Assembly: GCA_050012475.1 (NCBI GenBank)
Contig: JBEKHC010000096.1
Location: 1 to 19,172, forward strand
DNA from: Candidatus Velthaea sp.
Lineage (GTDB): Bacteria; Vulcanimicrobiota; Vulcanimicrobiia; Vulcanimicrobiales; Vulcanimicrobiaceae
DNA: 19,172 nt
Direction of reading: 5' to 3'
Shown here: positions 4,544-13,537 of the stretch, piece by piece
Position numbering within the stretch: the stretch's first letter is position 1
Layout of the letters: every line of letters starts with the position of its first letter
Translations under genes and position numbers: made by a program
Notes under the pieces: generated by a model
Database searches by the model: none
What the model was told of the DNA's origin: nothing
Seen by the model: the letters and a program-made list of their open reading frames with translations, nothing else

Positions 4544-4754
4544 GAGTGGCTCGCGTAGGGGCGGTTCGCGTAGCGGCCCGCGTTTATGGCTCGCCCAGAG
4601 CGGTTCGCGTTATGGCTCGCGTAGAGCGGCTCGCGTTTATCGCTCGCGTAGAGCGGTTCGCGCGGAGTGGCTCGCTTTGAGGGGCTCGCGTTGAGCGGTT
4701 CGCGTAGGGTGGCTTGCTTTGAGTGGCTTGCGTTGCGTGCATTGCATTGAGTGG
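4544..4754. repeat. degenerate tandem array, about 15 copies of a 12-15 bp unit
   Basis: Consensus approximately GAGYGGYTCGCGTW, no unique spacers. Confidence 0.9.
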
Positions 4755-5139: not shown

Positions 5140-5982
5140 CTATGCCGTCGCTGCGGCGATTCCAATCGCCGGACCATCGTCTAGCTTGAGCGCAAGGCAC
5201 TTCGCACTTCCGCCGGCTTTGTGAAATTCGCTGAGCTCGGTTTGAAAAACGCGGTATCCGGCATGGTTCAGCCGCTCGCGGAGCCGGCGCGAGCACGAAT
5301 GCATCACGATCGCATCACCGAGTTCGATGCTGTTCGCAGCGAACGCCAGGGCATCGTCGACGCCGATTTCGATCAGGTAGCCGGGATCGATCGTGCGGCG
5401 GAGCTGAATTTGGGCGTGCGGGCTGAGCGCGTCCATGTAGACCATGACGTGGCCCGACGAAAGCGGGCAGACCGCCATGTCCAGGTGGTAAAAACGCTCG
5501 TCGACGAGCAGCAGCGGCATGACCCGGCAGCCGATGAGTTCCTGCAGTTGCAGCGTCGCGTTCCGCTCGCTGCGCCAGCCGTAGCCGGCGTACAGAATCG
5601 GGCGAACCGGATCGAAGATCGCGTCGCCCGCACCCTCGAAGTAGGTCTGCTGCAGATAGGTAGTCGCAAAGCCCGCCTTGGTGAGCTGGACACGATAGTG
5701 GCCTTGCTCGCGGCGCCGCTCGGGATGACGAAAGCTCGACAAAACCGCCAAATTCCCGCAGATCAGCGCGGCGTTCGCCGTGAAAACCAGATCCGGGACG
5801 TGCTCGCCGGGTTCCATCGGGATGAGCGAAACGTGGGCCGCCACCGAGAACGTCTCCATCAACCGATCCCATTGGCGTTGCGCATCGGGAGCCGAATAAC
5901 CGACGTTACGCGTCATCCAAGGGTTGATGTCGTAGTTGACCGAGTAGTGAGTTGGTGGGCACACCATCAAGCGCGTCGCCAT
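5140..5982 (-). CDS. amidinotransferase/dimethylargininase (pentein) family hydrolase, ArgZ N-terminal-domain-like
   Basis: CPPTHYSVNYDINPWM, PDLVFTAN, FEGAGD, FYHLD, EFHKAGGSAKC catalytic motifs. Confidence 0.93.
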   Translation of the reverse strand: MATRLMVCPPTHYSVNYDINPWMTRNVGYSAPDAQRQWDRLMETFSVAAHVSLIPMEPGEHVPDLVFTANAALICGNLAVLSSFRHPERRREQGHYRVQLTKAGFATTYLQQTYFEGAGDAIFDPVRPILYAGYGWRSERNATLQLQELIGCRVMPLLLVDERFYHLDMAVCPLSSGHVMVYMDALSPHAQIQLRRTIDPGYLIEIGVDDALAFAANSIELGDAIVMHSCSRRLRERLNHAGYRVFQTELSEFHKAGGSAKCLALKLDDGPAIGIAAATA

Positions 5983-11746: not shown

Positions 11747-11775
11747 TTTACAGGGGGGGCCTGGCGGGGTATGAT
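11747..11775 (+). promoter_or_regulatory. sigma70 promoter for the speD leader
   Basis: TTTACA-N17-TATGAT; predicted start near 11781. Confidence 0.8.
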
Positions 11776-11780
11776 CGTAT

Positions 11781-11916
11781 GCGGACTCGAGACAGGCCCG
11801 GGTTTTATGAGCCAGGGCCCGGTTAAGTTGTCCTACGGAATGGGGGACGGCGCGCCCTACGCGCCTGCGCGGTGGAACGTTCGCGTGTTAGTAAGGACAC
11901 GTCAACAAGAGTTCGC
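11781..11916 (+). ncRNA. candidate structured cis-regulatory RNA in the speD 5' UTR
   Basis: Closing stem GCGGACTC/GAGTTCGC enclosing at least three hairpins. Confidence 0.6.
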
Positions 11917-12009
11917 CGATAGGTCACAATCGAGACGGTGTACCGCACGCGGTTGATGACGCGCCTGGAGGTGGGATTTTCCCAGCCAAGCCCAAGGAGA
12001 TCGGAAAAA

Positions 12010-12429
12010 TTGAAAGCACTCGGAACGCATATTGTGTGCGAGCTGTCCGGTTGTGACCCGCGGTCACTCACCGACGTCGCCGCCGTCGAACGCATGATGG
12101 TCGGAGCGGCCAAAGAAGCCAACGCAACAATTGTGGAGACGGCGTTTCACCGTTTCCAGCCCCACGGCGTTTCAGGTGTTGTCGTGATCCAGGAATCGCA
12201 CCTGTCGATCCACACCTGGCCCGAAACGGGATATGCCGCGATGGACTTCTACACGTGCGGCGACCACACCGATCCCTGGGCGGCCTGCGAATTCGCCGCC
12301 AAGGCGTTGGATGCGCGGAACATGTTGACGACCGAAGTCAAGCGCGGGATCGAAGCGCGCAAGGGTGAGTTCACCCACGTCATCACGACCGACCACGAAG
12401 AACGGTCGTTCGCGAAGAAAACCGCCTAA
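12010..12429 (+). CDS. speD: S-adenosylmethionine decarboxylase proenzyme
   Basis: GTHIVCEL, HRFQPHGVSGVVVIQESHLSIHTWPE (E-S self-cleavage), DFYTCG; AAGGAG then TTG start 12010. Confidence 0.95.
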   Translation: MKALGTHIVCELSGCDPRSLTDVAAVERMMVGAAKEANATIVETAFHRFQPHGVSGVVVIQESHLSIHTWPETGYAAMDFYTCGDHTDPWAACEFAAKALDARNMLTTEVKRGIEARKGEFTHVITTDHEERSFAKKTA

Positions 12430-12646
12430 TCGCAGCGGCTGGCGCTGCGCACTCGACGCCGGGCGACGCGTTCGCCCGGCGTCGCCTTGTCCGGGCTTGC
12501 GGCCCAGGTCATCGGCCACCGCCGGAACCGGCCGGTCGCGCCGGCGATCCGAAACGGCCGTGACGCGTACAGCGTTTGGGTAACGCCGCAGACGCGCGCG
12601 CTGCGGCGCCCCATGTATATCCGCCTCGTCCAGGAGACAGCCGTCC

Positions 12647-13537
12647 GTGCCGAAGACCGAACACTTTCAGTGGTACGTCGAGGAATTCTCGCCGACCGAA
12701 TTTCACCATCACGCCATCGACGAGCTGTATTACTCGGGACGCACGCCATTTCAGAGCGTCGCGGTGTTGCGCACGCCGGCGTTCGGCAAGATGCTCGTGC
12801 TCGACGGCGATACGCAAAGCTCGCAGGCCGACGAGAAGATCTACCATGAATCGCTGGTGCATCCGGCGCTGGCGGCGATCGCCGATCGCACGGAGATCCT
12901 CATCCTGGGCGGCGGCGAAGGTGCGACGCTGCGTGAGGCGCTCCGTCACCCGGGCGTGCGGCGCTGCACGATGGTCGACATCGACGGCGAGGTCGTCGAG
13001 CTGGCCAAGAAATATCTGCCCGAGTGGTCGGCCGGCGCGTTCGACGACCCGCGCGCGCGCCTGGTCATCGGCGACGCGCTGGCTTTTCTCAAGCAGGACA
13101 CGGGTACGTACGGCGCGGTGATCTCCGACCTCACCGAACCGCTGGCCGACTCGCCGTCGTTCCCGCTCTTCAACAGCGAGGTATTTCGCGATATTCGTGC
13201 GCGGCTGGCGCCGGGCGGCGTGTACGTGCTGCAAGCCAGCACCGCCGGCTTTCACAACATGGCGCTGCATGCGAAGATGGCGCGCTCGCTGCGCGCGCAC
13301 TTCGCGCACGTCGCGAGTTTCTACACCCACGTGCCGGCGTTCGACAACGATTGGGCGTTCATCGCGTGCAGCGACGGCATCGACGTTGCGACGCTCGAAC
13401 CAGCGGCGATCGATGCGTACGTCGCCGAGCTGCGCGGCGAAAACTATTTTTACGATGCGCAAACACACCGGCGGCTCTTCAGTTTGCCGCTTTATCTGCG
13501 CCGCCAACTTGCGAAGCAGGGCGACGTCTTCGCTTAG
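12647..13537 (+). CDS. speE: polyamine aminopropyltransferase (spermidine synthase family)
   Basis: FGKMLVLDG, DEKIYHESLVHP, LILGGGEGATLRE, VDIDGEVV, DLTEP. Confidence 0.95.
   Translation: MPKTEHFQWYVEEFSPTEFHHHAIDELYYSGRTPFQSVAVLRTPAFGKMLVLDGDTQSSQADEKIYHESLVHPALAAIADRTEILILGGGEGATLREALRHPGVRRCTMVDIDGEVVELAKKYLPEWSAGAFDDPRARLVIGDALAFLKQDTGTYGAVISDLTEPLADSPSFPLFNSEVFRDIRARLAPGGVYVLQASTAGFHNMALHAKMARSLRAHFAHVASFYTHVPAFDNDWAFIACSDGIDVATLEPAAIDAYVAELRGENYFYDAQTHRRLFSLPLYLRRQLAKQGDVFA

Follow-up and report, generated by a model that had tools for sequence, protein, structure and literature searches.

A conserved, structured 5' leader with a start-less Shine-Dalgarno-like site upstream of speD in Vulcanimicrobiales

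Polyamine-sensing RNAs have long been sought, and the excerpted text of PMC10853860 records a single validated class, which is rare. This spermidine riboswitch is a variant of the SAM-I riboswitch (Salvail et al. 2023, PMC10853860), characterized in those excerpts by the SAM-I four-stem junction, an intrinsic terminator and 13 examples from Gram-positive genera. In the excerpts of Weinberg et al. (2017, PMC5737381), the orphan ldcC motif is a single bulged hairpin, possibly with an invariant pseudoknot, that occurs in Firmicutes and two spirochaetes in front of several gene types, including decarboxylases and transporters. The odc1 motif of alphaproteobacteria combines, as far as the excerpts of Brewer et al. 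(2021, PMC8632094) extend, a ribosome site inside its main stem with a fixed upstream open reading frame (ORF) of 11 amino acids that begins at a second UUG shortly ahead of the main start. In respect to STAB-SD elements, the excerpted PMC5737220 describes a ribosome that binds a strong start-less Shine-Dalgarno-like site and blocks RNase J1.

Here we analyzed a window of 19,172 nt from a Candidatus Velthaea genome (contig JBEKHC010000096.1, order Vulcanimicrobiales), in which the leader of speD covers positions 11781-12009 on the plus strand. The first-pass annotation of this window had proposed a cis-regulatory RNA at this site; its sequences and coordinates were right, and all complementary stretches it listed exist. 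It had tied the proposal to conservation and covariation among orthologues, and a conserved, covarying cis RNA was indeed found upstream of orthologous speD. Of the fold as drawn only part was kept, the pseudoknot, the hairpin P3 and the start-less GGAGGUG, which is the most conserved element, having been overlooked. The literature searched, outside of which most subscription papers lie, yielded no description of this leader motif and no riboswitch paper for this phylum, and the motif was likewise not found in the excerpted text of PMC11109978 and supplement of PMC8632094.

The speD locus and its promoter

The gene behind the leader (12010-12429, plus strand) encodes a class 1b S-adenosylmethionine (SAM) decarboxylase proenzyme of 139 aa (TIGR03330, 150.7 bits at a cut-off of 75.65) and starts, as annotated, with the TTG at 12010. 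A speE-like polyamine aminopropyltransferase gene follows on the same strand (12647-13537; PRK00811, E 7e-71, just under the cut-off), and 18 of 30 loci have such a gene no farther than 1.9 kb downstream of speD. Both speD and the speE-like gene (PF01564) are single copy in this genome, as expected of a true SAM decarboxylase under the criteria in the excerpts of PMC10407285; that the protein is a neofunctionalised ornithine or arginine decarboxylase is unlikely, single copy together with speE being the reverse of what those criteria ask for. The closest relatives of this SpeD belong to the Vulcanimicrobiota (Eremiobacterota), and 99 of 111 homologues share the UUG start. An N-terminal extension of SpeD from an in-frame GUG of this genome was dismissed, its frame not being conserved. 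Nine loci of the sister family f3 (L032, L033, L035, L036, L038, L042, L045, L049, and L050) carry an out-of-frame AUG 4 nt upstream of the speD UUG, recalling the two-start arrangement of the odc1 motif.

As upstream neighbor, sufB is found within 1.5 kb in 27 of 30 loci, and it is divergent from speD in 27 of 30, whereas the window has a different upstream gene. The motif remains at speD despite this change of neighbor. A conserved regulator gene next to speD was not found in the 30 loci. An inverted repeat of the ATAGTGAAG ... CTTCA type overlaps the divergent sufB promoter, upstream of the speD promoter, in nine of 30 loci under a strict pattern (L007, L009, L010, L014, L016, L017, L018, L020, and L025), and is possibly the operator of an iron-sulfur cluster regulator. 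A minus-strand element serving sufB was rejected as an explanation of the leader, which lies downstream of the speD promoter and whose G-U pairs fit the plus strand; the other genes separating sufB in this window also disfavor it.

Further observations concern the surroundings. The speD-speE spacer of the window (12430-12646, 217 nt) is very G+C-rich and holds several inverted repeats, and in relatives speE lies about 470 to 1700 nt from the speD start. An intergenic, degenerate tandem array at 4544-4735 (14-nt unit, about 14 copies) with a strong G and T skew gave no Rfam match. At 5140-5982 on the minus strand, a gene resembles arginine dihydrolases or dimethylargininases below the respective cut-offs, possibly supplying ornithine for polyamine synthesis.

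The promoter proposed earlier, of the sigma70 type, was read directly from the plus strand (11747-11775), with TTTACA at 11747-52, a spacer of 17 nt and TATGAT at 11770-75, and predicts a transcript start at about 11781-11783. This site was among those called by promoter prediction, at 2 sites per 2 kb compared with 0.5 in shuffles. The pattern is conserved in 120 of 130 loci, four of the ten misses being truncated at contig ends, and is also present in other families of the phylum. In the promoter spacer (window 11753-11769), G-runs stand right after the -35 and right before the -10 hexamer in most loci of the order, and could be an operator or a lineage-specific promoter feature.

Terminator prediction found no terminator-like site on the plus strand between 11776 and 12010. 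Contigs of RNA libraries (one study, four runs) extend from 11906 to 12374 and from 11842 to 12029, thus joining the leader to speD, with the qualification that these data are contigs of patchy leader cover and possible DNA origin, from which strand, start and level are not readable. Both observations bear on an alternative in which the RNA, being multi-domain and single copy in every genome of the order searched, would be an independent trans-acting small RNA sharing the speD promoter or a diverged housekeeping RNA. We consider this very improbable: there is no terminator between fold and gene, the contigs starting at 11906 and 11842 extend into speD (one study, DNA possible), the distance to the start codon is short and fixed, and matches to SRP and 6S RNA lie elsewhere in five of five genomes (6S over the cut-off in one of the five).

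A conserved fold in series

Homologues were collected as DNA upstream of speD from 50 related genomes and 80 loci of a genome collection, giving 130 loci from two overlapping sets. GGAGGUSGG precedes speD in 128 of them, both misses having only 25 upstream bases, and the larger core is present in 111 of these 128; the 17 without it comprise three loci cut at contig ends and 14 of family f3. Alignment A2 holds 73 of 94 distinct cores, near-duplicates being excluded. Four of its 73 rows come from unpublished genomes, the contributions being L011 (G032), L020 (G022), L042 (G048), G024, and G031, and L011 has an identical public copy (L096). Resting on single unpublished genomes are the GAG/CUC change in L023 (G024) and, in L009 (G031), the loss of hairpin P0 and an A-U change in stem 2; apart from these items, the conclusions do not depend on single rows. 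Mean identity across the 73 loci is 0.73 for the core (11843-11983), 0.85 for the pseudoknot, and 0.89 for the 3' module, while for speD of the same loci the values are 0.47 (four-fold degenerate sites) and 0.85 (codon positions 1 and 2).

Judged by the alignment, the conserved leader is predicted to fold into a pseudoknot and the hairpins P2 and P3 in series, followed by the 3' module, all on the plus strand. A variable 5' hairpin, P0 (11781-11836), differs in length and sequence, lies outside the conserved core and is missing in L009, L034, L037, and L040; the previously annotated GGCCC/GGGCC hairpin falls inside this part and is itself missing in some homologues. The compact H-type pseudoknot (11843-11865) pairs GGGG (11843-46) with CCCU (11855-58) in stem 1, followed by a 2-nt loop (11847-48), and GGCGCG (11849-54) with CGCGCC (11860-65) in stem 2, the latter seen from pairing in the alignment and covariation. 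This GGCGCG/CGCGCC pairing had been listed as a competing one; it is kept, but as the core stem. A hairpin proposed at 11827-11851 had to be given up, as it overlaps and excludes the pseudoknot. The following junction (11866-11869, consensus AUCG, identity 0.83) ends in an invariant G and leads to P2 (11870-11918), which covaries and is composed of P2a (11870-76/11912-18) and P2b (11879-89/11896-11906) with an asymmetric loop AC/AAGAG and a C-C mismatch within P2b. The CGUGUU/GACACG hairpin of the first-pass annotation is kept in homologues. Outer P2 differs in length among homologues, and one genome (L156) has lost P2b yet reaches 84 bits with R1, a covariance model of the core. A kink-turn in the P2 loop was discarded by eye, the tandem G-A pattern being absent. 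Behind a second junction (11919-11922, AUAG or AAAG with invariant G, identity 0.85), the covarying hairpin P3 (11923-11960) contains internal loops and a terminal GUGU-ACC-GCAC (11938-48). The 3' module (11964-11983), delimited by conservation, consists of GGAGGUG (11967-73), GGA and a pyrimidine tract ending in CCC, and is followed in the sequence by the true Shine-Dalgarno AAGGAG (11994-99), an A-rich spacer of 10 nt and the UUG at 12010-12 (together 11994-12012).

In the 73 homologues, 94.5% of the 2917 cells of this structure are paired and 25 of 40 pairs show two-sided changes; slid structures reach 31-43%, and none of 500 shuffles matches the observed level. Because shuffles ignore kinship, the stricter figure is the six of 42 pairs which covary at E <0.05 beyond phylogeny (tree-based null), located in pseudoknot stem 2, P2a, P2b, and P3. 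A scan of all pairs with no structure given, likewise under a tree-based null, returned three pairs at E <0.05 and a fourth at 0.07, and all four fall inside the described helices. Stem 2 is 99.8% paired (pair 11852-11862, E 0.008), P2 holds the covarying pairs 11871-11917 (E 1e-4) and 11886-11899 (E 7e-4), and P3 contributes three pairs at E <0.001, one of which alternates G-A with Watson-Crick. A strain represented in an RNA library differs at 11875 and 11930, both changes turning a G-U of the model into a Watson-Crick pair. Stem 1 of the putative pseudoknot is the weakest structural claim. At least three pairs and a loop of 1-2 nt appear in 62 of 63 distinct genuine versions (one spurious f3 row was dropped from 64), with L011 failing and L156 similarly reduced, and compensatory changes occurred in three lineages (GAG/CUC in L023, AGG/CCU in L107, and, by eye, L008). 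Under the tree-based null, stem 1 showed no significant covariation in the 73 rows, partly because the alignment mixes two registers.

The long-range stem previously drawn between 11781-88 and 11909-16 did not stand as a general feature. At least seven of its eight pairs form in only 35 of 99 distinct leaders, even in the best of 7 registers, and its 3' strand instead belongs to P2a, where it pairs with 11870-76 in 97.8% of cells. The stem is the minimum free energy (MFE) structure for 11781-12013, drops to a probability of 0.0 when folded to 12030, and gives a fold in this genome about 4 kcal/mol worse than the conserved one, the pseudoknot not counted. One subgroup might adopt it as an alternative fold, for which no covariation was seen. 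Folding energy in general is unremarkable (z -0.77 over the full leader, z -2.27 within 11781-11916) and does not single the leader out, so the case rests on the homologues. On this basis, a structured leader before speD is virtually certain to be real; it is conserved, structured on the mRNA strand, single copy and tied to speD, and has the anatomy of translation-level control acting in cis on this gene.

Covariation and conserved unpaired residues in a conserved structured 5' leader, as found here, are general hallmarks of riboswitches. If the leader were a true riboswitch and the founder of a new class, the pseudoknot, both junctions and the bases of the P2 and P3 helices would form a selective aptamer for one metabolite (spermidine, decarboxylated SAM, methylthioadenosine, or SAM), and a switch of the 3' module would conceal the ribosome site or lay it open. 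We regard this as conceivable but doubtful. The sequences of stem 2 and both junctions are more conserved than pairing alone requires, and a variable periphery (P0, outer P2) surrounds a fixed core, which is typical of aptamers. The element also occurs only before a metabolic gene, and according to the excerpts of PMC10853860 such genes are known to be preceded by the spermidine riboswitch. Weighing against a riboswitch, the leader has no terminator, no covarying alternative (switch) helix was seen in the alignment, the element is limited to one order and one gene with no spread, and its most conserved part, the 3' module, is found in relatives that lack the big domain.

The start-less site and the age of the two modules

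In five relatives, the 16S tail has GAUCACCUCCUU at its end, to which GGAGGUG is therefore a perfect match, and GGAGGUGGGA is invariant in 111 of 111 leaders on order level. AUG, GUG, or UUG is absent 3-14 nt behind GGAGGUG in all 150 leaders, a set that includes one doubtful row (L178). Predicted binding of the 16S tail is stronger at the upstream than at the true site in 148 of 150 leaders, with medians in the order of -14.6 and -8.1 kcal/mol, respectively. GGAGGUG begins 21-35 nt upstream of the true Shine-Dalgarno in the order, and the true site is weak and placed mostly 10-14 nt from the start codon; in Escherichia coli, polyamine-sensitive initiation is marked by long spacing and by UUG starts. 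The invariance of GGAGGUG could also reflect a protein or tertiary contact rather than 16S pairing.

Two alternative, mutually exclusive hairpins of the 3' module, YCYG/UGGG and GGAG/YUCC, are each kept in at least 90% of rows, and the pyrimidine tract can pair back onto GGAGGUG. The hairpin which the first-pass annotation had placed at 11970-87 stands as part of the MFE structure in this genome, but its GGGA/UCCC loop would measure at most 2 nt in many homologues. Between the pyrimidine tract and the true site, predicted pairing has a median of 0.67 in f3 and 0.0 in the order, so the mechanism may differ between lineages.

Control by an upstream ORF, for which eukaryotic SAM decarboxylase mRNAs and the odc1 motif provide precedents, would assign a different role to the upstream site, with a leader peptide possibly starting from a near-cognate AUU or AUC behind it. 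Such a codon lies 4 nt behind GGAGG in 139 of 150 leaders, and the module frequently changes at the third positions of a GAG-GUG-GGN frame. This reading is nevertheless highly unlikely, as a canonical start is lacking, the spacing is too short for initiation, the distances to the speD start fall into all three frames (40, 43, and 28 of 111), core length modulo 3 is likewise spread (34, 26, and 33 of 93), stop positions are scattered, and every frame contains stops in 52-76 of 93. A conserved upstream ORF was accordingly not found in the 93 cores and 111 leaders.

A strong start-less match to the 16S tail within a 5' leader also characterizes STAB-SD elements, and RNase J was found in five of five genomes. 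As an alternative without small-molecule sensing, a roadblock of this type would keep a poorly translated mRNA long-lived, the pseudoknot being a barrier to 5' exonuclease or the site of a regulator protein, perhaps SpeD itself. The pseudoknot opens the core on its 5' side and in L034, L037, and L040 lies roughly 10 nt after the predicted transcript start, a placement compatible with such a role, and H-type pseudoknots with a first loop of 1-2 nt are bound by autoregulatory proteins, as in phage T4 gene 32. A function of start-less Shine-Dalgarno-like sites is known from Bacillus subtilis, according to the excerpts of PMC5737220. A plain roadblock would, however, not account for covariation across 100 nt of P2 and P3, for the pyrimidine tract conserved behind the site or for the restriction to speD, and no conserved regulator gene adjoins; we judge it, like the riboswitch reading, conceivable but doubtful.

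The distribution of the core was followed with R1, in whose training set about a third of the genomes with strong hits are contained. The model has one strong match in the genome of the window. Among 101 genomes of the phylum, it detects 32 of 32 in the family, one of one in the other family of the order and zero of four in f3, with only two weak places elsewhere in the phylum; weak matches number four (E 0.003-0.05). Strong matches come from 34 genomes of the order, one each, all about 40 nt or less from the speD match, and include 13 genomes of genus g45, which is absent from the training set. R1 searches of the window's genome and the 101 phylum genomes found no copies before other polyamine genes, and zero of three Bacillota speD leaders matched.

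The 3' module reaches further. It occurs without the big fold at 30 of 34 more distant loci (15 of 15 in f3 and 15 of 19 in other families), where it sits behind short, unrelated leaders; of the remaining four other-family loci, one has a degenerate module and three have none. As the module precedes speD in families that lack the domain, it is the older of the two. In locus L176 (G150, family f18), a long multi-hairpin leader unrelated to R1 stands ahead of the same 3' module, which suggests that different structured domains were added independently. Metagenome searches with the module pattern gave at least 11 occurrences directly before speD among at least 118 matches listed, and the 107 of those listed that lie away from speD look like chance. 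In viral contigs, none of 32 pattern matches preceded speD, and SpeD relatives were not found.

Proposed control and comparison with known polyamine-gene leaders

The explanation we favor, if tentatively, is a two-module 5' leader acting in cis to set SpeD translation, most likely as polyamine feedback via a ribosome-binding decoy. A 30S subunit would bind the start-less GGAGGUG and be unable to initiate there. Parked 21-35 nt upstream, it would cover, compete with, or feed the weak true site, and would in addition block 5' decay, shielding the mRNA from RNase J. GGAGGUG would toggle between a free state and one folded into its own small hairpins. The pseudoknotted domain, presumably added in front of the 3' module in this order, would shift this toggle when its fold is stabilized by spermidine or a related cation, and high polyamine would lead to less SpeD synthesis. 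Direction and signal of this control are deduced from the identity of speD alone. In favor of the decoy explanation, all 34 strong R1 matches directly precede speD, a polyamine gene. Several results count against it: in the 73 rows neither 3' hairpin shows two-sided covariation, no covarying helix connects the big domain with the 3' module, GGAGGUG is not depleted in the genome (observed/expected 1.02), with 40 start-less copies outside crudely called genes, and the R1 searches placed no copy at other polyamine genes, where feedback elements often occur.

A bolder version is rather improbable: a pseudoknotted aptamer, set in one order on an ancient start-less ribosome trap, would bind spermidine or decarboxylated SAM and govern, by a previously undescribed mechanism, the parking of a 30S subunit on the decoy, which would shut the true start. 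If true, it would constitute a new riboswitch class with a decoy ribosome site as expression platform, and possibly the first sensor of decarboxylated SAM. Even without a ligand, a start-less perfect ribosome site before one metabolic gene throughout the phylum represents unexplained translational control. From its sequence features, the leader seems to be a hitherto undescribed means of translational control over a polyamine gene. It provides a compact, well-supported candidate for a polyamine RNA with more than 100 natural variants in an order of soil bacteria, and homologues that naturally lack P0, P2b or the big domain supply ready-made designs for test constructs. As the modules differ in age, the system shows a structured domain being added to a simple ribosome-binding element.

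In comparison to described families, the Rfam check suggested for the leader returned no known family: at gathering score the window has no match, and at E up to 10 only chance-level matches were obtained on the leader and 20 homologous loci, and the same on 20 further loci (19 distant ones plus L156) and on one short distant leader. The earlier statement that a SAM-I consensus is absent was borne out, the covariance model RF00162 giving no match at E up to 10 in the genome of the window and none at the locus in four relatives. With the spermidine riboswitch, as portrayed in the excerpts of PMC10853860, the leader shares the position 5' of polyamine genes including speD, the multi-helix build and the likely action as an off-switch. 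It differs by a 5' pseudoknot and unclosed tandem hairpins with no terminator, and no helix that would close a junction as P1 does shows covariation or persists in 90% of rows.

With ldcC, the excerpts of PMC5737381 indicate an orphan cis-regulatory nature, a position before SAM, ornithine, and arginine decarboxylase genes and a possible pseudoknot as common traits. Set against that description, the speD leader spans 140 nt with three covarying domains and a varying pseudoknot, and is confined to speD and to Vulcanimicrobiota. The suggestion of an ldcC-like relative is thus unsupported, given the multi-domain fold and the lack of any R1 match among the Bacillota speD leaders, ldcC being judged here by its excerpted description. 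A remote relation may exist for the 3' module, since its 20 nt can be read as a bulged hairpin. The speD leaders of Anoxybacillus amylolyticus and Bacillus sp. N5-665 (L337:490-540 and L338:470-520) have some 50 nt in common that are nearly identical and consist of a hairpin and, behind it, a C-run able to pair with the G-run of the ribosome site; this stretch may be the published ldcC motif. Rfam gave no match on this conserved Bacillaceae leader either; the silence of Rfam is consequently no test of ldcC, as the family may be absent there.

Common to the odc1 motif, in the excerpts of PMC8632094, and to the speD leader are a pseudoknot near the 5' end, a polyamine gene, a UUG start, and control at translation initiation. 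Different from odc1 as excerpted, the speD leader has no conserved upstream ORF and its true ribosome site lies outside the fold; its pseudoknot, from 5' flank to loop on a 6-bp stem, is located about 130 nt upstream of that site. STAB-SD, in turn, shares the perfect 16S-tail match without a start codon, the 5' leader position and an RNase J organism (excerpts of PMC5737220). Compared with that description, the match here stands only 21-35 nt before a true site, with a conserved pyrimidine tract behind it and a large covarying domain attached. In summary, the speD leader presumably works like the orphan and validated polyamine-gene leaders, yet it falls outside the SAM-I/spermidine and odc1 classes and is set apart from ldcC by the shape and range described for that motif.
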